A DNA stretch of 62,051 nt from a virus. Lineage: Duplodnaviria; Caudoviricetes. Every line of letters starts with the position of its first letter. Within the stretch, counting starts at the first letter, position 1. The notes beneath the pieces are model-generated. The model saw nothing but the letters and a program-made list of their open reading frames with translations, searched no databases and was not told the DNA's origin. The position numbers and the translations under genes were made by a program. The stretch lies in IMG/VR virus record IMGVR_UViG_3300049259_000057, positions 1 to 62,051 of that record; one strand, 5' to 3'. Below are positions 3,244-61,983 of the stretch, piece after piece.

Positions 3244-3297
3244 ACTGTACGGATGCCTGCTAGTTCGTCTTGCCGGAGTACCAAGCATCCGTACAGT
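3244..3297 (+). promoter_or_regulatory. Sigma70-like promoter overlapped by a 13-bp inverted repeat
   Basis: TTGCCG(3270-75)-N16-TACAGT(3292-97); ACTGTACGGATGC 3244-56 / GCATCCGTACAGT 3285-97. Confidence 0.6.
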
Positions 3298-3688: not shown

Positions 3689-4948
3689 ATGAGCACCACC
3701 CGAAACCTGAAACTCTCTCAGACCATGGTCGCCGGTCTCGTCCACTACGCCTATGAGGCCATGGGCCGCGACGACTGGCGCGTGCCCTACCCGGCCACCA
3801 GCACCCGCGTGGCACTGGTGACACGAGAGCTGATCACCCCCGGCATGACGCACGAGATCAACGACGCGGGCCGCGCGGCACTCCTGGCAGCGCTGGACAA
3901 TGACGCGCTCGACACGCCGAACGTTCCGGAACTGCGCGAGTACCTGGCGACCCCGGTCACTGTCCCCCCCCTGCCTGTAAACACCACTGGCCCCCGTAGC
4001 CCGATCCGTGTTAGCCCGCCACGCCAGCCCGGCAACGGCACTACGCGCAACTGGACGCGCACCCTGTCCGGCAAGCTCTACGCCTTTTTCCTGGTAACCA
4101 TGCCTGATGGTGAAATCCGCTACGAAATCCGCCGGTACGACGGGTCGCCAGAGGGAGCAAAGTTTGATTGTGACTGGACGCGGTTGCATTTCATCACGAT
4201 TCCGGCGCCCACGGCCCCGGTCGCTAGCACGTCTGCGGACCCGGTGCGCACGTCCCTGGTGTCGCGTGGCCTGGTCCCGCCGACGCTGGTTGCCTCACTG
4301 GACGATTTCGGCCCTGCCCCGGTCACTGTCGCCAAGGTTGCCACGCCGGTCGCCCAGCGGCCCGTCACCGAGCCGAAGGTGTCGACGCTTGACCTACTCG
4401 AACGCATTGACCGGGTGGCCCGGAACCTGATCGAAAATGCGCGGGCACAAACGGTCGACGGTACCCCGATGGACATCCGCAACCTGGCCCACCGCATCGA
4501 TGGACTGTGGCAGACCGCCACGGCATTGGTTCAGCGTCTAGGACGCGTAGTGCTGCCGTTCCCAGAGCTGATCGCGTCCATTCATCCGGGCAAAAAGGCA
4601 GTGAAACGACGTGACCCGGTGGACGCGGCGGCCCTCATGGCACAGCTCACGGTGATCCGGACCGTGGGTGACGTGGTGTCTGATTGGTTGACTCCGGAAC
4701 AGGGTTACAGCCCGGACCCCACGGCGCCGTTGATGGACTGCCCGGAATGCGGGCGCCCCGGCATCGTGCACCGCGACGGTTGCGCGAACGGTCAGGACGC
4801 ACTCAGGGCGCGCATCGCGAAGGCGCTCGGTGACCGCGAGTGCGAGGCGAACGCGCGCAAGGGCACCGGTACCGGCTCGTGTGACCGGCCGCTGGACGCG
4901 CACGGCAACTGTGACCGCGCGTCCGCTCACATCACGGATGGTGCCTGA
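3689..4948 (+). CDS. Hypothetical multi-module protein with C-terminal Cys/His motifs
   Basis: AGAGGGAA SD before ATG 3689; CPECG..HRDGC and C..CDRP..HGNC. Confidence 0.75.
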   Translation: MSTTRNLKLSQTMVAGLVHYAYEAMGRDDWRVPYPATSTRVALVTRELITPGMTHEINDAGRAALLAALDNDALDTPNVPELREYLATPVTVPPLPVNTTGPRSPIRVSPPRQPGNGTTRNWTRTLSGKLYAFFLVTMPDGEIRYEIRRYDGSPEGAKFDCDWTRLHFITIPAPTAPVASTSADPVRTSLVSRGLVPPTLVASLDDFGPAPVTVAKVATPVAQRPVTEPKVSTLDLLERIDRVARNLIENARAQTVDGTPMDIRNLAHRIDGLWQTATALVQRLGRVVLPFPELIASIHPGKKAVKRRDPVDAAALMAQLTVIRTVGDVVSDWLTPEQGYSPDPTAPLMDCPECGRPGIVHRDGCANGQDALRARIAKALGDRECEANARKGTGTGSCDRPLDAHGNCDRASAHITDGA

Positions 4949-5918: not shown

Positions 5919-6160
5919 TGCCGGCGAACCGTGATCGGTGCAGCGCGCCCATGACTCACTATCCCGATATGCAGTGCACCTATATCGCAACATTCTACGT
6001 TCACCCGATGCAGCACCCATCCAAGGGCAAATTCGGGTGCACTCAACACCTGGCCAAAGTGTGCCGAACCATGGCCGCCGGTACCGCCGAGGATCTGACC
6101 GCCATGACGGACACGGTCACAGTGATTGTCCTTCGCAACAACGAAGGGGAATCGCGATGA
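5918..6160 (+). CDS. Small Cys-rich hypothetical protein
   Basis: TGATG coupling; C...CTYIAT...CTQH, a pattern similar to the preceding ORF. Confidence 0.6.
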   Translation: MPANRDRCSAPMTHYPDMQCTYIATFYVHPMQHPSKGKFGCTQHLAKVCRTMAAGTAEDLTAMTDTVTVIVLRNNEGESR

Positions 6161-7734
6161 CCGCCACCAGCAGCCGGAACCGAGCCGCACTCACGGCGGT
6201 CAACACGCCCATCGTCGCGGACGCCTACATCCGGTTGTCCGACCTGCGCGACACGGACCTGACGGAAGAGGGCATCGGCAAGACGTTCGCCGATCGGGAG
6301 AAGGCACTCCGCGAGTTCGCCGCGCGGCTGGGTTGGACGATTGATCGCGTGGTGATTGAAAACGACCTGGCAAAGTCGAAAACGGGGAAGCAACGCGGGG
6401 CGTCCGCGTTCAAGCGACGCAGGGTGTACCAGGCCGATGGCACGTACACTCTGCGCGTGTGGCGACCAGGTTTTCAGTCCATTCTGGACGACATGAAATC
6501 CGGTCGGATCAATGCCCTAGTGGCTGAAGACCTGGACCGTGCGATGCGTGACCCCCGTGACCTAGAAGATTTGATCGATATTGCCGAGGCACACAAGATC
6601 AACGCTCGTTCCCTGGCCGGTTCGTTGACGTTCACCGATGGCGGAACGGACGCCGAGATCACGATGGCCCGGGTCATGGTGACGATGGGCAACAAGTCGA
6701 GTCGGGACACGGTGCGCCGCGTGGCAGCGTCACGGGAACGCAAGGCGTACGCGGGTGAATACGGCGGCGGGACACGCCCCTACGGTTTCGAAAAGGACGG
6801 CGTCACGAAGATCTGGCACGAGTGCGCGGTGATCGCGACCGCGTCCCGCCGTGTCCTTCAGGGTATATCGCTGAAGGAACAGGTACGCGACTTGAAAGCC
6901 GCCGGGGTGCCGACGACCACGGGCACGGGCCAGTGGGACACGCGGACACTGAAAGCTATTTTGATCAGGGAACGCAACGCGGGCATTCAGATCTACCAGG
7001 GCGAGGAAATCGGGTCAGCGCCCTGGGCCCCCATCATTCCCGTGGACATGTACCGGGAAGTGGTGCGCATACTGCGAGACCGGGCCGTCAACAACAACCC
7101 CAGTAACGCGCCCGTGTGGTTCGGTTCCTGCATCTACGAATGCGGCAAGCCAGAATGCGACGGTGGTCGGATCGTGGTCAACAAATCCGGCAAGCGGACC
7201 CCTACCTATGTGTGCACGAACGGGCACCTGGGCCGACGTGTGGAACCCGTCGACGTGCTGGTCGTCGGTACCATCATCGAAATGCTGTCCCAGCCGGAAG
7301 CGGCCGGTTTGCTGGTCCGGAAGGGCAAGGCGCCGATTGACTCGGAAAAGCTACGCGCGGAATGTGCCACGATTCGCCGGAACCTGGTCGAGTTGGCCGA
7401 AGACCGCGCGGAAGGACTGATCGACCGGGCCCAGATGCTCGCCGGTACCCGCAAGGGGCAGACTCGACTAGCCGAAATTGACGAGTTGCTGGCGTCGGCC
7501 GTGGTGGAGTCGCCGCTGGCGCCGATGATCGCTGCCGCTGATGTGCGCACGTCATGGGATCAACAGCCGTTGTCGGTGCGCCGTGCCGCGTTGGGGCTGC
7601 TGCTGGATGTGACAATCCTGCCGGCACCGGAGGGTCAGAGCCGTATTTTCGATCCGAGACTGATCCGGATCACCCCGAAGGAGGGCTACACGATCCCCTC
7701 GTCCATCGGCCGGTCAGTCACGATGGCCGCGTAA
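6157..7734 (+). CDS. Large serine recombinase (integrase)
   Basis: AYIRLS catalytic motif, RPGF, DLDRAMRD, GGTRPYGF recombinase domain, CGKPEC...YVC Zn ribbon, coiled coil; GAAGGGGA SD before ATG 6157. Confidence 0.95.
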   Translation: MTATSSRNRAALTAVNTPIVADAYIRLSDLRDTDLTEEGIGKTFADREKALREFAARLGWTIDRVVIENDLAKSKTGKQRGASAFKRRRVYQADGTYTLRVWRPGFQSILDDMKSGRINALVAEDLDRAMRDPRDLEDLIDIAEAHKINARSLAGSLTFTDGGTDAEITMARVMVTMGNKSSRDTVRRVAASRERKAYAGEYGGGTRPYGFEKDGVTKIWHECAVIATASRRVLQGISLKEQVRDLKAAGVPTTTGTGQWDTRTLKAILIRERNAGIQIYQGEEIGSAPWAPIIPVDMYREVVRILRDRAVNNNPSNAPVWFGSCIYECGKPECDGGRIVVNKSGKRTPTYVCTNGHLGRRVEPVDVLVVGTIIEMLSQPEAAGLLVRKGKAPIDSEKLRAECATIRRNLVELAEDRAEGLIDRAQMLAGTRKGQTRLAEIDELLASAVVESPLAPMIAAADVRTSWDQQPLSVRRAALGLLLDVTILPAPEGQSRIFDPRLIRITPKEGYTIPSSIGRSVTMAA

Positions 7735-14677: not shown

Positions 14678-14863
14678 TTACATGAGTTGACCCTCACGGA
14701 TGGCGGCTTGGCACAGTGACCATGCCACTACACTAAAAAGCAGTTCGCCATCGTTGGGAGCCTTGCTATCTCGAACGCCCGTTTCCGCGTCCATTACAGC
14801 AACCTCTACACATTCGTTGCCACCGCCACTGTAACTACTCGTGCGCCATACCCTTTTCGGCAT
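14678..14863 (-). CDS. DUF397-domain protein
   Basis: WRTSSYSGGGNECVEVA...VRDSKAP...L.F...AW signature. Confidence 0.93.
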   Translation of the reverse strand: MPKRVWRTSSYSGGGNECVEVAVMDAETGVRDSKAPNDGELLFSVVAWSLCQAAIREGQLM

Positions 14864-15728
14864 AATTCCGTCCCTTTAGTTCAGCAATCCGAGCCCGTAT
14901 CAGCGCCTCCGACTCCGCAGTGGATAGCGCCTGGGCTGTTGTGTCATTGAACATGGCACTGAACTTATCAATAGTCTCCTTGTCGTCGATCCATTCTCCA
15001 CCGCCTTGATATTCCAGATAAATAGAATCAGGCGGAGTATCGAACCCCAGAATAATCATCGGGCCGGACATGGTGCCATAGGCGCCGGCGTCCTCGTGGA
15101 CTACCTGAATCGTGACGTTATCTTCCTGTCCGGCCACCAGGAGATGCTCCAACTGGTTGACCATGACAGAAGGACTGCCTACCACTCGACGAATGACGCC
15201 CTCGTCTATTAGCGCGTGCAAGACCAGGGGCTCTGGTCCGGACAACAATTGCTGGCGTGCCAATCGAGCGGCAGTCGCCTTGGCCGCGTCAACTGTAGGA
15301 TCTACGATTCTTCGCGATGCGTGATGAACAGCAGCCGCATAGTCTCCAGTCTGCAATAGTCCAGGCATCGCCGTTGGCTGCAATGTCCGCTCAATGGATG
15401 CATCGGCTTCCGATCGCAAGAAGGCGCGGAACTTAGGGGGAACAGCAGACGAGCCCTGAATCTTCCGACTGTCTTGCTTCGCGTCTTGCCAGTAGCTCCC
15501 GATCTCGCGTCGTTGTTCGTCGGTTGCACCGAAATAAACCAACATCGCAGTAAGTTCAGCGAACGCGCACAGGTTGTGGCCATTCTCGTACTTTGACACC
15601 TGTGCCGCTGTCTTCTGAAGTAGGTCGGCCACGTCCTGCACCGTGATCACGGGGTCATGGTGAGCCTTCCGAAGAGCGGCGAGCGCCTGTCCGACTCGTC
15701 GCTTGCGTCTGGTGGGCGTACTCGGCAT
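14835..15728 (-). CDS. XRE HTH plus DUF5753 regulator (WhiJ/Scr1-like)
   Basis: N-terminal HTH; MPGLLQTGDYA, LIDEGVIRRVVG, QLEHLL, VTIQV, YLE; overlaps the DUF397 gene. Confidence 0.92.
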   Translation of the reverse strand: MPSTPTRRKRRVGQALAALRKAHHDPVITVQDVADLLQKTAAQVSKYENGHNLCAFAELTAMLVYFGATDEQRREIGSYWQDAKQDSRKIQGSSAVPPKFRAFLRSEADASIERTLQPTAMPGLLQTGDYAAAVHHASRRIVDPTVDAAKATAARLARQQLLSGPEPLVLHALIDEGVIRRVVGSPSVMVNQLEHLLVAGQEDNVTIQVVHEDAGAYGTMSGPMIILGFDTPPDSIYLEYQGGGEWIDDKETIDKFSAMFNDTTAQALSTAESEALIRARIAELKGRNYAEKGMAHE

Positions 15729-15756
15729 GAGACACACACTAGCCGTAGTCGGGCCA

Positions 15757-15816
15757 GGGAGAACAGTCACCCGATCTATGTAGTGCGGGAGAACAATCTC
15801 CCCTGTACTGTCTCCC
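15757..15816. promoter_or_regulatory. Operator-like repeats in the divergent promoter region
   Basis: GGGAGAACAGTCACCC (15757-72) and GGGAGAACAATCTCCC (15787-802), 30 bp apart; TACTGT -10-like hexamer at about 15806. Confidence 0.6.
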
Positions 15817-15818
15817 TT

Positions 15819-16288
15819 GCTGACGGGGTCACGGCGTACCGGTCGCGGGCAAGGCTCCGTCCCGACCTGCGGATCGGTGTCCGCCGCCGTTGACCCCGTC
15901 AGCCCTAGACGCGGCCTGGCAGCCGCTACCCGGTCCCTACGTCCGGAGGTGAGCACGACATGTGTGCACACGCGGTGTTCGCGTGGCTACGTGCCGACGC
16001 CCCTCACGCTGCCAGGCCGCTGACACGACGGCGGGGGCGGTCCCTCCTCCCCGATAGCCCCCGTCGTCGTGTCACCAGCACCACGCCCCCGTGGGGACGC
16101 CAGACCAGGCCCCGGGGGACTCAGGGCAGGAACCACCAGGCGCGAGCGTCCGCAGGGAATGCCCTCCCTCCCCGGGCGCCCCTGGTGGGCTTCCTGCCGG
16201 GCGATGGGCTGCCAGTCCAGCCGTCCGCCCCGGGACGCGGCCGGGGGCCACATCGGTCGTCCGCACCGATGGCCCCTGGCCGTGTCCC
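15819..16288 (+). ncRNA. Array of about six long back-to-back hairpins with C/U-rich loops
   Basis: Inverted repeats 15819-31/15891-903, 15911-23/16008-20, 16021-38/16057-74, 16125-40/16181-98, 16199-230, 16232-57/16265-88. Confidence 0.65.
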
Positions 16289-16385
16289 TCTCTTACGGCA
16301 ACGCGCCGTGGCTATTCCTGTAATCGCCCGTGGCGCATCCCGTTACCCGGATTCATGGTGACCGCCTACACGAGGTGAAAGTAAA

Positions 16386-16733
16386 ATGTTGTCCGGACAT
16401 GCGCATGGCCTAGAGCTGGCCATTGAGTGGCTCGGTACCGCTGTGGTGATCGGCTGGATTGTGTGGCTACTCATTACCGGCCGCGACAAGCGGGCGCAGA
16501 TGGAGGCCGAAGCCGAATGGCACCAGGTACACGCCATGGTGCTGGCTGACGATTGGGCCGACACGCGGTACGGGATACCGAGCTACCTGGACAGTCCCGA
16601 GCTACGCGCCAAGGTGATGATGCGTCGTACCCAGGAAGCGGCACGGGTTGCCGACCGTGAACGCCGGCCGGTCGTCCACCACGCCCAGTGTCAGCACGCG
16701 GCGGCCCACCAGGGGCAGGGACAGGCGTCGTGA
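16386..16733 (+). CDS. Membrane-anchored hypothetical protein
   Basis: GAGGTG SD; N-terminal TM. Confidence 0.65.
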   Translation: MLSGHAHGLELAIEWLGTAVVIGWIVWLLITGRDKRAQMEAEAEWHQVHAMVLADDWADTRYGIPSYLDSPELRAKVMMRRTQEAARVADRERRPVVHHAQCQHAAAHQGQGQAS

Positions 16734-17236
16734 GGTCACCCGTGACGGCCGTCGTGACCCTGGCGGTCGTGGCCGTGGTGCTCGGCGCCGGGTGCTTGGT
16801 GACGTGGATGCGTCGTCGTCGTATTCGGCCGGTGTTGCTGCCGCCACCGATACCCATGCCCTACGTCGACCGCACACCCGAAGATGACCTAGAGATCATT
16901 CGAGAATATTTCGGCACGTGGAATTGTCGTTTCTACGGCCGCCATTACCACCCGATGGCCACGGCGGTGTATCGCCGCTGCGCTGGTGGCGGGTGGGATG
17001 TGTTTGCTGTCTGGCGAGATGGCCGAGTGGTGGCCTACCGCACGTCACCGGATGCATTCGAGCCGACCGATCCGCGTTTCGTGGTGTGGATGTGGGCGGA
17101 TGGGCATATTCACGAGACGGCGCAACAGTTGAAGGCGCTACCGCCCTATTTCCATGCGCCACTTGTGCCACTGCCCGAGAAGTTTCACATGCCAGATATT
17201 CGACCTATCACCTTTCGTCCCGGTAAGGATGCCTGA
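16730..17236 (+). CDS. Membrane-anchored hypothetical protein
   Basis: GTGA overlap; N-terminal TM followed by RRRR. Confidence 0.65.
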   Translation: MRSPVTAVVTLAVVAVVLGAGCLVTWMRRRRIRPVLLPPPIPMPYVDRTPEDDLEIIREYFGTWNCRFYGRHYHPMATAVYRRCAGGGWDVFAVWRDGRVVAYRTSPDAFEPTDPRFVVWMWADGHIHETAQQLKALPPYFHAPLVPLPEKFHMPDIRPITFRPGKDA

Positions 17237-18587: not shown

Positions 18588-19193
18588 GTGCGGTTTCGAT
18601 TCTCGAACACGGAGGTGTACCCGGCCACCGGCCGTCTGCTGCGGGAAATCCGGCGCACACTCAACGTGACCGTGAATAGTGTCGCTACTACGTTGGGTTC
18701 CGCAGAGTCGATGATATCGCGCATTGAGACGGGCCGGTGCGAACCGCCCTTGATGCATTATTTCATGGTCTGTTTTGCGCTGGACATTGATCTCAGTGTG
18801 CTTGTCAAAGTAGTCCAGGATCACACTAAGGACATTGTCTCCGGATTTAATTTTCCGTATCCCCTGCGGAAAACAACTCTGGCCATCGTCGATGTGTTTC
18901 GCGATAGTCCGACGCGTTTTATTCATGAGGCGGAAATCGCGACGGAGGCTCGGCTCGACCGAAATAGGACTGACGATGGAATCCGCCAGCTATGCGCCCT
19001 CGGGTGGATACAGAGAGACACTGCCGAGGGTTCTCAACGTCAATGCTATTGGCGACTGTCGGATCAAGGTGTGCAGGAACTCCCCCAGATGTGCGCCTAC
19101 CTGGATCGTCTCCACGAACTAGCAATGATCGTCATCAACAGCAGTCGCAGCACTGTAGCTACACCCCACGAGAACACAGCTACGAGGAAGTGA
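18588..19193 (+). CDS. XRE HTH plus winged-helix two-domain regulator
   Basis: LREIRRTLNVTVNSVATTLGSAESMISRIETG plus EIATEARLDR..L..LGWI..YWRLSDQG. Confidence 0.75.
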   Translation: MRFRFSNTEVYPATGRLLREIRRTLNVTVNSVATTLGSAESMISRIETGRCEPPLMHYFMVCFALDIDLSVLVKVVQDHTKDIVSGFNFPYPLRKTTLAIVDVFRDSPTRFIHEAEIATEARLDRNRTDDGIRQLCALGWIQRDTAEGSQRQCYWRLSDQGVQELPQMCAYLDRLHELAMIVINSSRSTVATPHENTATRK

Positions 19194-20348: not shown

Positions 20349-21440
20349 CTACTGGTGCGGGCCGGTGTTCTTGGCCCACCACGAGAAGGGATAGGAGGCT
20401 GACGAGTACAGGACGCCGCTGCCTTGTGCCCGCACGACGATCGCGACGCGGAGCACGCCACCGTCCAGGTCACCGGAGGTCACGGACAAGCCGAGCGGGC
20501 CGGACTGCGAAGTGAACCCGGTCGAGATGTACCAGGCTGGGTCACCTTCGGCAGTCGGGTTGATCGTTCCGGTGGACAGGTACCGCACGATGGACGAACC
20601 GACCAGGATCGCCGTGTCCAGGAACGCGGTCGCCGTGGTGGAGTGCATCCCATGGAGACCGATCTCCACCCAGTCCCCCGCCACGGCCGGGATGTCCAGC
20701 TCGAACCCGGACAGCGGCACCCAGGCGCCCCCGGTGTTGGGCAGGGTGGTGTCCCCGGTGAGGACCCGTTGCTGACGAACGACCAGGGGCGCGGCACTGC
20801 CACCGGCCACGGGTGTGGTCCATCGGAGTCCGGTGGGTTGGCCCGGGTCGACGGTGAGCACCTGGCCCGTGGTGCCGACACCGAGCCGGGTCACCGTGCC
20901 CGAGCCGAGTGCGGCCAGGAGGTCACCTGCGGCCGTGACGGTAGCGGTCGGCACCAGTGCCGCCAGGGCGGCGGCCAGGCCGGTGACGGCGGCCTGAGAC
21001 ACGGTGCCCACCCGTAGCGTCACGGCACTGGCGTTGCCGCCGACCACGATGGAGCTGTCCGCCGCCGTCAGCGACTGGATAGCCGTCCCGTACGTGCCCA
21101 CCAGGGCCACCGGCACCACATCGGCGAAAGCCACACTCGGCGTAGCCGCGAACACTTGCGCCTGAAACGTGGTCGACCAACCGGCAGTGTTGACCGTGAC
21201 CGTGTACGCCCAGCCGGACGGGGTGAGCGTGGGCGCGTCGACAGCGGGCACCGTGACGCTGAATGAGCCATCGGGGGCCAGTTCGGCGCTGATCGTGTCC
21301 GGGCCGATGACCGCGTTGCCCGTGTGGTCCCGTAGCGGCGTGGGGATGGACCATGACACGGTGCCGCTGTCGGGCCGCCCGTCTGCCCGTTCCAGGGCAC
21401 CGTGCACGGTCACCACGGCCACGTCTGTCGGGTAGGGCAC
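20349..21440 (-). CDS. Minor tail / tail fibre-like protein
   Basis: Gly/Thr-rich; AAGDLL..G.GTVTRLGVGTTGQVLT fibre-like motif; last gene of the late operon. Confidence 0.65.
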   Translation of the reverse strand: MPYPTDVAVVTVHGALERADGRPDSGTVSWSIPTPLRDHTGNAVIGPDTISAELAPDGSFSVTVPAVDAPTLTPSGWAYTVTVNTAGWSTTFQAQVFAATPSVAFADVVPVALVGTYGTAIQSLTAADSSIVVGGNASAVTLRVGTVSQAAVTGLAAALAALVPTATVTAAGDLLAALGSGTVTRLGVGTTGQVLTVDPGQPTGLRWTTPVAGGSAAPLVVRQQRVLTGDTTLPNTGGAWVPLSGFELDIPAVAGDWVEIGLHGMHSTTATAFLDTAILVGSSIVRYLSTGTINPTAEGDPAWYISTGFTSQSGPLGLSVTSGDLDGGVLRVAIVVRAQGSGVLYSSASYPFSWWAKNTGPHQ

Positions 21441-47606: not shown

Positions 47607-47838
47607 GGTGCCGGGAGTGCCGGATCGCCTACTTTCCCCACCTTCTTGATCTTTGACGTTCCCGATAGGTAGAGGAATCCGTCACCTTGCGACACCCGAT
47701 GACGGATGGTGCCGGATTCTGGAGTTCGGCTCTTCGCGTGCGCGCGAAGCGATGATCTTGAAAAATCCGGCACCATCCGGTCCGCACGGGGCAGCCGGGA
47801 CAGCGAACCGACACCGAAAATCGGCCGATCCGGCACCG
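47607..47838. repeat. Inverted iteron-like repeats, putative replication origin
   Basis: 16-bp perfect IR 47703-18/47764-79 and 11-bp IR GTGCCGGATCG 47617-27/47826-36, directly downstream of the primase. Confidence 0.65.
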
Positions 47839-47843
47839 GGCGG

Positions 47844-50279
47844 TCAATCCTGGCCGCCAGGTCGGGTGTCGGGTGTCAGATCGGCGCTGTCGACCAGCCA
47901 CACGCCGACGTACATCCGGACACCGTGTGAGCGATAGGAACCGACCCCGAACGCGCGTCGTAGGGTCTGGGTGAACGCCTTGGCGCTGACCGCCGGAACC
48001 CCCTCACCGTGACACCACCGCTCGTACGCGGAACGCACGACGTCCACCCGTGTCCGCACGGTGTCACCGCCGCCGAGCCGGCAGCAGTCCTCGATAAACC
48101 GACTCACGCTGTCCTGGTCGTGTGCGTATTCATCGGTCGCGGCGTGCACACTGTCCGGCTCGTGCAAACCGTCTGCCAGATAGCGCATTGCACCGGTCAC
48201 AATCCAGTTCATGACCGCGTCGCCGTGGTGGCGCGCCAGGTGTTCGCCGAGCGCTTGCACTTGCCGGTCCGGTGGCACGGTGTTGTCGAATGGTAGGATT
48301 CTGAGCCGTCGCCAGAATGCGGGTCCGCCAGCGTTCACGGCGGGTTGATGATTGGCGGCCAGCCACAAATGGTGTGTCGGCGTGAAAGTAAAGTGGTCTT
48401 GCCGCATGAATCGGGCCGTCAGCGCGTCACCACCGGTCAATAGTTTGACCCTGGCCTCGTCGAATTGGTCGCGTTCGTTGACTTCGGAACACACCACGAA
48501 ACGGGCGCCGGACAGTCGAGCGATTTCTGTTTCGTGGGCAGGGTAGTTGCGCGTCATCAGGAACCCGGCGGGCGCGGTGATGGCGTACCCTCCCAGCACC
48601 AGGCGGATTGTTTCCAGGAATGCGCTTTTGCCGTTGGCGCCGTCGCCGAAACAGAACGGCAACACATGTTCTCGGACGAGTCCCGTGGCGGAGTATCCGA
48701 CGAGCCGCTGAAGGTAGTCGGGCACTTCGGGGTGTCCGGCGAATGTCTCGGCCAGGAAGGTGAGCCACGGCAACGGGTCCGCGTTCGGGTCGGGTGTCGC
48801 GACGGTGACCCGCGTGTGAAGGTGACAGGGGTCGTGCGGCATCAATTGCCCGGTGCGCAAATCAACTTCGCCGCCGGGGGTGTTCAGCTCGAACGGTCGG
48901 GCGTCCAGGTCGGTCGCGCGCACCACGATCCGGGGGTCACTGCTGGCCTGGCTAAGGATGTTGGTGGTGCCGGGCGCGGACAGTACGTGCACCTTGTGCC
49001 GCACGTCGGGGGCGTCGTGATCAGGCATGGTCCGACCTATCTGTTTGACGTGTTCGCGGACGGGGCCACCATCGGACGGGCACTGTTCCCAGCGGGGGGC
49101 GTGCCAGCGCATCCATCGACCGGGGGGGCTGGCGAACCGCACCACGGTCCCGAAGGTGTCCACCAGGGCCAGCGCCATGGCGTCGTCGGTGCGCGCGTGG
49201 GTGGTGGCGGGTGCGAGCTGCACCACGGGCGCCAGGGCCCCGTTCGAGCCGCCACCGATGCCGGGGAGCACGGTCAGGACGGGCCGCTGCGGTTCGGGTG
49301 CCCGCTGGCCGTAGCCGTTCGCCGAGAGCGCCTTGGCTGCCGCGTGAAAGTCGCCGTCGTGGTGCAACAGGGTGTACGCGCGCCACTTGGACAGCCCGGT
49401 CTCGGCCGGCAGCGTGGTCGAGGTGCTCCACACGTACAGGTAGTCGCCGCTGGTGCCCCCGGTGACCGCTGACACGCCGAGGTGTTTCCCGGGCCGCCGC
49501 CAGTGGGTTCGGGTGGCGTTGCGGTGCACGGGTGTCCAGCCGGCCGGCACCAGCACGTCATCCCAGGTGGCCCGTTCGTTATAGTCGGCCCCGGGTGGTG
49601 TGCCCTGGCGTCGGTCCAACGGAATGGGATCGGGGAGCGGTGTGGGCGGCGGCAGTTCATCGAATGTGCGCGCCACGGTGTAGAGCGCGTCTCGTTCGTC
49701 GGCGGTGATCGTGGTGATGGTGTCGGGCGATCCGGTCCAGACGCGCCAGGGTGCACCTGTGGGGTGTACGGGCCCGTGGCTGGGCGCGACAACCACGAAG
49801 CCGCCTTCCCCCCGGGTTTCGATCAGCGGCGTTACACCCGTGCCGGTGTCGCGTTGCGCGAGTTTCGTGTTACCGCGTGCCGTGCCACCGGATACCCGGT
49901 AGAACAAGTGAATGCCGGACGTGGGTGAGGTTTCCGAGTAACCGGTGATGATGCGATCACGTATCGGCTCTAACCCGTGTTCGAGTAGCGCGCTCAAGAA
50001 TTGCCCAGCGGTACCGTCGGCCACGGCGCGGCCTTCTAGTTCCAACATTTCCAGGTGACCGGACACCGCGCCGCAGACGACACCGACACCGGGGTGTCCG
50101 CCCACGAACCACGCATCAACGGCCCGTGTCCCGGCGGGTTCGGCCTGGGCGTGTTTCCACTGTCCCAGTGGTGCTTTGCTGCCATCGGTGGCGACGCGCA
50201 CCACGGAGCAGCCGGCCGCGCACCACGCCAGGGCGGCACTGTGTACGTCCATCGGTTCGGGGCTGTGACGGTCGTCCAC
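47844..50279 (-). CDS. Prim-Pol plus P4/D5-like SF3 helicase (primase-helicase)
   Basis: K.P...W, TPTSGIHLFY, ETRGEGGFVVVAPS; GDGANGKS Walker A; LTGGD...ARFMRQD.F.F; WRR. Confidence 0.93.
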   Translation of the reverse strand: MDDRHSPEPMDVHSAALAWCAAGCSVVRVATDGSKAPLGQWKHAQAEPAGTRAVDAWFVGGHPGVGVVCGAVSGHLEMLELEGRAVADGTAGQFLSALLEHGLEPIRDRIITGYSETSPTSGIHLFYRVSGGTARGNTKLAQRDTGTGVTPLIETRGEGGFVVVAPSHGPVHPTGAPWRVWTGSPDTITTITADERDALYTVARTFDELPPPTPLPDPIPLDRRQGTPPGADYNERATWDDVLVPAGWTPVHRNATRTHWRRPGKHLGVSAVTGGTSGDYLYVWSTSTTLPAETGLSKWRAYTLLHHDGDFHAAAKALSANGYGQRAPEPQRPVLTVLPGIGGGSNGALAPVVQLAPATTHARTDDAMALALVDTFGTVVRFASPPGRWMRWHAPRWEQCPSDGGPVREHVKQIGRTMPDHDAPDVRHKVHVLSAPGTTNILSQASSDPRIVVRATDLDARPFELNTPGGEVDLRTGQLMPHDPCHLHTRVTVATPDPNADPLPWLTFLAETFAGHPEVPDYLQRLVGYSATGLVREHVLPFCFGDGANGKSAFLETIRLVLGGYAITAPAGFLMTRNYPAHETEIARLSGARFVVCSEVNERDQFDEARVKLLTGGDALTARFMRQDHFTFTPTHHLWLAANHQPAVNAGGPAFWRRLRILPFDNTVPPDRQVQALGEHLARHHGDAVMNWIVTGAMRYLADGLHEPDSVHAATDEYAHDQDSVSRFIEDCCRLGGGDTVRTRVDVVRSAYERWCHGEGVPAVSAKAFTQTLRRAFGVGSYRSHGVRMYVGVWLVDSADLTPDTRPGGQD

Positions 50280-50402
50280 GGGGTAGTGCCTCTCGGGGTG
50301 CTCTGGCGTGGCGCGCGGCGGGGTGTGGTGGCGGCACAGGGCATTCCGCCCGTTCTTCGTGGGCCGCGTGCTCTTACCTACGGGTCGGCCACCACCGGCC
50401 AG

Positions 50403-58253: not shown

Positions 58254-58520
58254 ATGGTCGACGGTGAGCCGGACCAGCACCCGAACACGATGACGACATG
58301 GGACGTGGCGGTGCTGGTGGGTTACACAAGCGACGACAGACGCATGATCTTGCGGCAGGCTGCCGGCTGGCTGCACCGAGCGGGTATCGGTGCGGTCGGC
58401 CGGCAGCCTGGTCGCACGGGGATGAACCTGTATCCGACCGATGCGGTCCGCGCCGCGCTGGACGCGATGCCGGGCCGGGGAGCACCGGGCCAGCCGCGCG
58501 CGAAACGGCACCAGGGTTAG
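58254..58520 (+). CDS. Small putative DNA-binding protein
   Basis: MTTWDVAVLVGY...WL.R.GI...NLY...V...PG.G. Confidence 0.6.
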   Translation: MVDGEPDQHPNTMTTWDVAVLVGYTSDDRRMILRQAAGWLHRAGIGAVGRQPGRTGMNLYPTDAVRAALDAMPGRGAPGQPRAKRHQG

Positions 58521-61922: not shown

Positions 61923-61983
61923 GGCGCACGACAACGGCCCCTCTTCGGTCTCACAAGGACACGGGGGGCCGTTGTCGTGCGCC
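61923..61983. terminator. Long stem-loop (19-bp perfect IR)
   Basis: GGCGCACGACAACGGCCCC / GGGGCCGTTGTCGTGCGCC. Confidence 0.7.

Follow-up and report, generated by a model that had tools for sequence, protein, structure and literature searches.

The window analysed here is a 62,051-nucleotide (nt) stretch of viral DNA. At positions 15819-16288, between a leftward Xre-DUF5753/DUF397 gene pair and a rightward operon, it carries seven adjoining hairpins, which form a real RNA-level element that is conserved in structure and belongs to no Rfam family. The substitutions seen in relatives indicate that selection acts on the pairing of this element, not on its sequence or on any reading frame. We lean towards reading it as the long, almost fully paired 5' part (leader or noncoding RNA) of a repressor-controlled early rightward transcript.

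An array of seven hairpins

The first-pass annotation of the window described an array of back-to-back hairpins, about 470 nt long, at 15819-16288. The array was found at this place, and its fold comprises seven domains next to one another (H1-H7), whose outer stems have 13-25 pairs:

15819-15903, + strand: H1, the 5'-terminal hairpin, an 18-base-pair (bp) outer stem around two small hairpins (RNA folding; homologs in 10 loci)
15911-16020, + strand: H2, a perfect 13-bp outer stem; its inner hairpin sequesters the Shine-Dalgarno (SD)-like CCGGAGGUG (15942-15950) and the ATG at 15960
16021-16074, + strand: H3, a 21-pair hairpin with the exposed C-rich loop CCCUCCUCCC at 16043-16052
16086-16118, + strand: H4, a short hairpin
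16125-16198, + strand: H5, a 17-pair outer stem with nested 7- and 5-pair stems; probable compensatory changes at 16126/16197, 16131/16192 and 16158/16165
16199-16230, + strand: H6, two stacked 5-pair stems; probable compensatory change at 16210/16219
16232-16288, + strand: H7, a 25-pair hairpin, followed by UCUCUUAC without a U-run

The folding energy of the + strand was -299.7 kcal/mol (z = -8.68), the z value of the - strand was -5.14, and for both strands none of 100 dinucleotide shuffles was as stable. The hairpins are real and far beyond chance. Approximately 75% of the bases are paired in 15960-16288, the GC content of the hairpin stretch is 0.74 (about 0.63 for the genome), and 3 of the 26 inverted repeats with 9-nt seeds found in the whole window fall within these 470 nt. 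The view that the array repeats a structure rather than a sequence held up: the stem sequences differ among the hairpins, and the only direct repeats found were short and present in two copies.

Pairing is retained while the sequence changes

A 133-codon open reading frame (ORF) overlaps H2-H7, and its product (P0112) has a single relative, P0113, encoded on a 42-kb contig (see below). For each residue difference between the two proteins the minimal nucleotide changes were inferred and placed on the window fold in the region 15960-16288. This yielded 37 changed sites, 16 of them at unpaired positions. In five pairs both sides were altered and yet remained paired (16036/16059, 16126/16197, 16131/16192, 16158/16165 and 16210/16219), seven one-sided changes preserved pairing (six from Watson-Crick to G.U, one from G.U to A-U), and three pairs were broken. 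H3 of this close relative shows one compensatory G-C to A-U change and two changes of G-C to G.U. When the same changes were moved to random positions with the same original base (20,000 permutations), the means were 0.87 compensatory, 11.5 one-sided but kept, 11.9 broken and 11.3 unpaired. The probability of obtaining at least five compensatory pairs was 0.00045, and three or fewer broken pairs did not occur in any of the 20,000 permutations.

Two viral contigs, L003 (found with a profile of Xre homologs) and L030 (found by a conserved 16-mer), have an equally hairpin-dense stretch at the same place, with almost no sequence similarity to the window. The window and L003 can be aligned only in H1 and in a short module consisting of CCCTAG, CCGGAGGTG and a small palindrome with ATG or GTG; the window, L003 and L030 all carry CCGGAGGTG unchanged, and each of their folds has it paired. 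The flanks are conserved between the window and L003 (Xre 48% identical, downstream gene 36%). L003 and L030 are 79% identical by column where they can be aligned, and their consensus structure has 146 pairs. Of these, 30 are compensatory, as compared with 0-4 in controls whose partners were shifted by 1-3 columns, and no shuffle out of 500 attained the observed value. When the fold of one contig was imposed on the other, pairing persisted on the rightward strand in 37 of 91 and 44 of 80 variable pairs, and on the opposite strand in 23 of 84 and 27 of 92. Covariation among the regions upstream of other Xre-DUF5753 loci, which the first-pass annotation had proposed to look for, was found, both in the 30 compensatory pairs of L003/L030 and in H1 across ten loci (see below).

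The 133-codon frame is not a conserved gene

15960-16361, + strand: 133-codon open frame over H2-H7, judged to be no conserved protein (GC by codon position 0.76/0.71/0.71, flat)

A conserved protein encoded here had been named beforehand as the finding that would speak against a structural RNA. The stretch would then be an ordinary gene, specifying an Arg/Pro-rich basic protein of 133 amino acids whose mRNA happens to be structured. There is a GGAGG 10 nt upstream of the ATG, and the sole relative among about 5.8 billion proteins, P0113, is 70% identical over 98% of the length with all gaps in frame. However, just 4 of the 39 substitutions between the two proteins are conservative (positives 73% versus identities 70%), and the P0113 frame continues through the start codon of the next gene, the end of the ORF not being conserved. 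An exhaustive HMMER search of 1.84 billion representative proteins returned only the ORF's own cluster, and no Pfam or PHROG family matched it. Two open frames at the equivalent place in L003 have no similarity to the 133-residue product; they are absent from the protein collection and were not called by its gene callers. Between L003 and L030 the reading frame shifts within the hairpin stretch, and the substitutions are distributed evenly over the codon phases (0.41/0.36/0.38), in contrast to 0.33/0.35/0.50 in the neighbouring gene. Because there is one relative only, the changes are non-conservative, the frame shifts, and both codon phase and GC are flat, we conclude that 15960-16361 encodes no conserved protein; an ordinary gene is extremely improbable.

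A family of 5' hairpins, expanded in one lineage

H1 has homologs at the same position in other phages and prophages, upstream of Xre genes:

Window, 15819-15903
L003, 3822-3911, - strand
L030, 1844-1931, - strand
L008, L010, L011, L013, L020, L024 and L028

These hairpins are 57-90 nt long. At all 10 loci, which belong to phages or prophages, they point away from an Xre-DUF5753 gene and start 5-12 nt past a TAnnnT hexamer. The outer stem is semi-conserved, G(C/U)(U/C)G(A/G)CGGGG... pairing with ...CCCCG(U)C(A/G)GC. H1 appears to be a 5' leader motif of its own, not described before. A pattern combining the H1 3' arm with CCGGAGGTG matched 16 loci in viral contigs; the 14 beyond L003 and L030 were without an H1 5' arm and were rejected as chance matches. 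Similarly, L031, obtained in the 16-mer scan, was discarded as an AT-rich chance match. Scans of viral contigs with single proteins (the first operon gene, Xre, and the helix-turn-helix (HTH) gene 18588-19193) yielded no relatives.

Relatives with H1 only have an SD and a start codon 24-65 nt past the hairpin. The first gene after H1 encodes a small Cys-rich protein in L008, L028 and L020, and an HTH protein in L013. The Cys-rich proteins (90-105 amino acids, 50-87% identical, with the motifs RFRW.P..GRRHA and CWP.C..CD.AW) are unrelated to the frames in the hairpin stretch. A homolog of the window gene 16730-17236 is the first gene after H1 in L010 and the first after the hairpin stretch in L003. 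When the same 470-nt span was folded in 25 Xre-relative loci, only the window (-0.60 kcal/mol/nt) and L003 (-0.61) stood out, both with a GC content of 0.74-0.75; the other 23 gave -0.39 to -0.51 kcal/mol/nt and had coding ORFs within 100-200 nt. Between the conserved 5' hairpin and a conserved gene lie, in the window, H2-H7 and, in L003 and L030, 8-10 hairpins. Since there are relatives with H1 alone before the first gene, H2-H7 represent a lineage-specific expansion of a simpler leader.

The folded strand

The first-pass annotation had remarked on G-U pairs on the plus strand, and the H1 loci show an asymmetry between G.U and A.C pairs. The first 12 positions of the H1 stems at the 10 loci make up 120 cells, of which 96 are Watson-Crick, 23 G.U and 1 A.C, with no other mismatch; six positions have two or more types of Watson-Crick pair. 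The scan that reported an H1 hairpin (in 14 of the 26 loci examined) permitted G.U pairs, which favours the rightward strand. Four H1 loci found by synteny or alignment alone have 41 Watson-Crick, 7 G.U and no A.C pairs. The stability values point the same way: for L003 and L030, z was -7.24 and -6.93 on the rightward strand and -3.51 and -3.98 on the other, the corresponding window values being those given above. The excess of G.U over A.C pairs and the stronger rightward z values indicate that the + strand is the folded one. Since the hairpins start immediately past what resembles a promoter, the folded molecule is most naturally read as RNA.

These data bear also on an explanation at the DNA level, according to which the stretch is a replication origin, a single-strand initiation site, a cruciform or recombination site, or a foldback mobile element of the kind of miniature inverted-repeat transposable elements (MITE) or repetitive extragenic palindromic (REP) sequences. 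The stems are inverted repeats in DNA as well, both strands fold better than their shuffles, the stretch lies at a point of transcription divergence, and its GC content could mean foreign origin. The strand asymmetry is counter to a double-stranded or cruciform function, however, and compensatory change combined with free sequence drift is unlike what is seen in protein-binding sites. Moreover, there are no iterons, AT-rich tract or terminal inverted repeats, the ends of the stretch are not mutually inverted, and it is present in the phage in a single copy. BLASTN of 15700-16420 against 50,697 phage and 72,556 plasmid records gave no match; of 401 genomes sampled from the A. fastidiosa family, none had a copy and 16 had marginal matches of 28-46 nt (E 1e-4 to 1e-3). 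We regard a DNA element as very unlikely.

Putative promoters and operators in front of the array

The region between the Xre gene and H1 contains the following candidate sites:

15736-15741, - strand: -10-like TAGTGT, 7 nt before the Xre ATG, putative leaderless promoter; L003 and L030 share the 16-mer around it without change
15757-15772, no strand: O1, operator-like half-palindromic 16-mer GGGAGAACAGTCACCC (direct repeat family D2)
15787-15802, no strand: O2, operator-like perfect palindrome GGGAGAACAATCTCCC, ending 3 nt before the + strand -10; palindromes stand at the same place in L003 and L030
15806-15811, + strand: -10-like TACTGT, putative early rightward promoter, aligning with TACATT (L003) and TAGATT (L030)

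The TACTGT hexamer had been noted earlier as lying just before the array, and it does so, 3 nt past O2 and seven bases ahead of H1. H1 begins 7-9 nt past a conserved TAnnnT hexamer, and the window, L003 and L030 share the same layout, a -10-like hexamer with a palindrome just upstream and H1 next. On the other side, the position of TAGTGT 7 nt ahead of the Xre ATG suggests that the Xre mRNA is leaderless.

O1 and O2, 30 bp apart from centre to centre, are the sole zero-mismatch copies in the whole window, and one of them overlaps the upstream region of each divergent promoter. The window hairpin stretch contained no exact copy, and its matches with three mismatches were at chance level; a double-operator pattern found 0 matches in viral contigs. 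At the second operator position the palindromes of L003 and L030 differ from that of the window, as expected for different immunity specificities. L003 has a third palindrome, GGGGGATAGTCCCCCC (about 3790-3806, - strand), within the leader, approximately 130 nt downstream of the -10; it is much like the promoter-proximal operator of L003, GGGGGAGTATCCCCCC, and can itself fold as a small RNA hairpin. Possibly it serves as a downstream operator; the window has no counterpart.

Leader or free-standing RNA

The arrangement described above would fit the following course of events. Transcription would start about 7 nt past TACTGT, with the O2 palindrome beside it acting as the operator for the divergent Xre-DUF5753 regulator. 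In the RNA H1 would come first, then H2-H7 up to 16288, and then the gene at 16386. H1 might protect the 5' end of the transcript, H2 might hide the conserved SD-like CCGGAGGUG, and the stems of 17-25 bp could gate the amount or survival of full-length early mRNA. Such gating might work through pausing or non-canonical termination, through RNase III-type processing, or by shielding a long untranslated stretch.

In none of the three sequences is there a TAnnnT hexamer in the stretch from the last hairpin to the first gene, and a promoter scan reported just one site, which overlaps the start codon. The tails after the last hairpin, UCUCUUAC in the window and GUUCCAUC and GUCUCAAG in the other two sequences, are without a U-run. 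An attenuator of the intrinsic-terminator class, which would have a GC-rich stem-loop and a U-run shortly before the first gene, is not supported: 15400-16800 contained 0 terminator-like sites. As neither a promoter hexamer nor a terminator intervenes, a leader of about 570 nt is likelier than a free small RNA (sRNA); with hexamers being rare in GC-rich DNA, these features weakly suggest a leader rather than a free-standing RNA.

Several points weigh against the structured leader. The stretch without a hexamer is only 62-97 nt long, and from base composition we estimate about 0.3 hexamers to be expected per sequence. Hairpins without U-tails do not support canonical attenuation. Where the transcript starts, where its 3' end lies and whether it reads through are deduced from the DNA. 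With regard to the pairing evidence, the P0113 nucleotides were derived from protein, so that synonymous changes remain unseen; the L003/L030 consensus structure comes from the same two sequences that were used for counting; and the fairer transfer test has 36-54 broken pairs, in part due to poor alignment in the middle of the stretch. The expanded stretch is known from three DNA sequences and one relative at the protein level. Finally, a + strand acting as single-stranded DNA would give the same signature, with G.T in place of G.U.

The first-pass annotation had considered the array an undescribed multi-module sRNA or processed leader under XRE control, with anti-SD-like loops. The part of this proposal that stands is a noncoding + strand element selected for structure, and the hexamer and operator beside Xre fit a leader; the anti-SD sRNA did not fare as well. 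Such an sRNA would be a free-standing, trans-acting molecule of about 470-480 nt whose C-rich loops pair with SD sequences of the host or the phage. An exposed CCUCC(C) loop is indeed present in each of the three sequences (probability of being unpaired 0.99 in H3 of the window, 0.99 in L003 and 0.98 in L030), the H1 loops of L013 and L009 contain CCUCC, and the 25-pair stem of H7 is followed by a U/C-rich tail. Three C-rich loops had been reported for the window. The one at 16043-16052 is clean (probability of being unpaired 0.99), whereas the second tract, around 16162-16172, is mostly paired (0.2-0.6), and just this one of the three proved clean. In the close relative the CCUCCUCCC loop is shorter by one CUC unit, and the sequence of the second C-rich tract is altered. 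The window showed a weak enrichment of anti-SD-like 5-mers (13 against 5.8 expected, P 0.04), but no enrichment was seen in L003 (P 0.26) or L030 (P 0.52). C exceeds G on the + strand (0.38 versus 0.33) and G is almost always paired, hence C-rich loops follow from composition. There is also neither a canonical terminator nor a promoter-like hexamer for the downstream gene.

The cuckoo sRNAs, to which the array had been likened, consist of repeated stem-loops, each exposing a CCUCCUCCC-type loop, and are conserved among homologs. The likeness did not survive comparison: the window scored 13.2 bits with the CcsR1 model (gathering score 65.3, E 4.7), it has one clean CCUCCUCCC loop, and the motif is neither conserved nor enriched in the relatives. 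The Rfam search found no family, with four sub-threshold matches at chance level in the window region; Rfam 15 gave no CcsR1 match in L003 or L030, and its two matches to miRNA models in L003 were outside the stretch. Altogether, we consider a free-standing anti-SD sRNA rather unlikely.

Translation of the 133-codon frame might matter even if its product is unconstrained. In a leader-ORF attenuator of this sort, ribosomes entering at GGAGG would unwind the hairpins, so that the expression of the genes downstream would report the translation capacity of the host. All three sequences have the SD-like CCGGAGGUG with an ATG or GTG 7-10 nt further on; in the window, P0113, L003 (where frame and next start overlap as TGATG) and L030 the open frame ends no farther than about 25 nt from the next start; and the relatives with H1 only have the SD and start codon of their first gene at the same distance from H1, 24-65 nt. 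Against this, the probabilities of a chance open frame are 0.13, 0.25 and 0.22, and the joint value, about 0.06 by our arithmetic with 2-3 start frames each, is not significant. Each of the three folds has the SD-like motif in a stem, and the L003 frame escaped the gene callers of the protein collection. A leader ORF of this type seems to us quite improbable.

A more far-reaching version of the structured leader can be imagined, in which the first phage transcript made on derepression is a large protein-free RNA machine. It could be a ribosome-read sensor, whose always-open, unconstrained frame lets host translation capacity decide early expression, or an immediate-early decoy or scaffold RNA, which ties up a host enzyme acting on double-stranded RNA or an RNA-sensing defence before any phage protein exists. 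Taken jointly, the sensor and the decoy are an unlikely prospect. If true, either would represent a new class of large structured phage RNA, grown hairpin by hairpin from the single 5' hairpin that relatives have kept.

The phage and the genes flanking the array

The window record is a whole virus of 62,051 bp with a completeness rating of 100%. Its genes include a serine integrase (5938-7734), portal, major capsid protein, large terminase and primase-helicase; the integrase together with the portal, capsid and terminase genes identifies it as a temperate tailed phage. Its closest named relative is Streptomyces phage Samy, with a match limited to the terminase gene (68%). Homologs of the window Xre, 45-64% identical, come mostly from Pseudonocardiaceae (Actinokineospora, Allokutzneria, Saccharopolyspora, Saccharothrix), and several of them are on contigs of about 60 kb. 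The sequencing-run search listed one soil-metagenome DNA run, possibly the origin of the window, and no RNA run containing the window sequence.

The hairpin stretch occupies most of a 657-bp gap between the Xre-DUF5753/DUF397 pair on the - strand and a tightly packed operon on the + strand. The features flanking it are:

14678-14863, - strand: gene of the small DUF397 protein, downstream partner of the Xre gene (Pfam PF04149, E 2.2e-15)
14835-15728, - strand: Xre regulator, HTH_31 and DUF5753, 297 amino acids, probably leaderless (PF19054, E 4.7e-47; PF13560; phrog_9908)
16289-16385, + strand: linker, less structured, with a 16-nt direct repeat at 16306-16343 and the SD GAGGUGA at 16372-16378; no TAnnnT hexamer
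16386-16733, + strand: first operon gene, 115 amino acids, no family (GC by codon position 0.75/0.46/0.76)
16730-17236, + strand: second operon gene (BLASTP: 36% identity, E 1e-19, to L003; 27%, E 2e-4, to L010)

The end of the Xre gene and the start of the DUF397 gene share 29 nt (14835-14863). In phage Samy the two genes are in the same order, beside the integrase, and the divergent gap is just about 260 bp. XRE-DUF397 pairs of Streptomyces are described as regulators (PMC6262351, PMC10364602).

The two copies of the direct repeat between H7 and the first gene, CCGTGGCTATTCCTGT and CCGTGGCGCATCCCGT, are spaced 22 nt apart. Judged from its protein, the P0113 relative has an apparently intact second copy and has kept the first in part, with the last five bases of that copy and the next six bases heavily altered. 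The first and second operon genes overlap by GTGA (16730-16733). The 115-residue product of the first gene gave no match against phages in tBLASTN and has no counterpart in L003 and L030, where the homolog of the second gene stands first. Upstream of each first gene there is a common CGAG(G/A)TGA, 7-9 nt from the ATG.

Elsewhere in the window, further long inverted repeats with arms of 16-28 nt, some of them perfect, are located at 58356-58410, 61923-61983, 47703-47779, 3244-3297, 50209-50325 and 20932-21088. After correction for GC the most stable 150-nt segment of the phage genome is at 58301-58500, with z about -4.4.

Significance

The element adjoins the lysis-lysogeny switch in a family of temperate phages whose hosts are soil actinomycetes, and its position is defined by the order operator, -10 hexamer, H1, hairpin stretch and first early gene. 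The relatives themselves offer a graded series, with one hairpin at one end and seven to ten at the other, and the role of the extra RNA is open to study with deletion reporters. If the hairpins gate early genes, they would add an RNA layer to the repressor switch in phages whose regulation is almost unstudied. If they are only a stabilising leader, the element would be a modest addition to the catalogue of cis-regulatory RNAs.

Comparison with known systems

To our knowledge, large structured RNAs are seldom found, most of them lack an explanation, and actinophages account for few. Among elements of bacterial and phage mRNAs, 5' stabiliser hairpins and STAB-SD leader elements are single elements of some tens of nucleotides. 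H1, predicted to start within 1-2 nt of the presumed 5' end, and the SD-like sequence in the leader resemble them, whereas H2-H7 add about 385 nt that have no known counterpart there. RNase III processing hairpins, as in the T7 early region and the lambda N leader, occur between genes or singly in a leader; the near-perfect stems of 17-25 bp in what would be an immediate-early transcript resemble such sites. The put RNAs of HK022 are a further possible resemblance.

The similarity to the cuckoo RNA CcsR1 (RF02791; PMC4615179, PMC8034643) consists in one window hairpin loop that carries CCUCCUCCC. Cuckoo RNAs belong to Alphaproteobacteria and have a series of such loops, in contrast to the single motif loop of this actinophage. 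None of the 22 window ORFs scanned was a DUF1127 gene.

A closer parallel is offered by the conjugation operon of pLS20, which has a structured leader of 456 nt with a 'zipper-type' attenuator, an intrinsic terminator whose formation is blocked by extension of a long stem (PMC13401043). In both systems hundreds of untranslated nucleotides separate the first gene of a mobile element from its main regulated promoter, most of this stretch is taken up by long imperfect stem-loops, and relatives share the structure while differing in sequence. The differences are that the pLS20 leader is from a plasmid, not a phage, that it belongs to another host phylum, and that it has three segments instead of 7-10 hairpins. 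Its defining terminator is absent from the window element, which has no terminator-like site; the pLS20 leader is the nearest functional analogue that could be documented.

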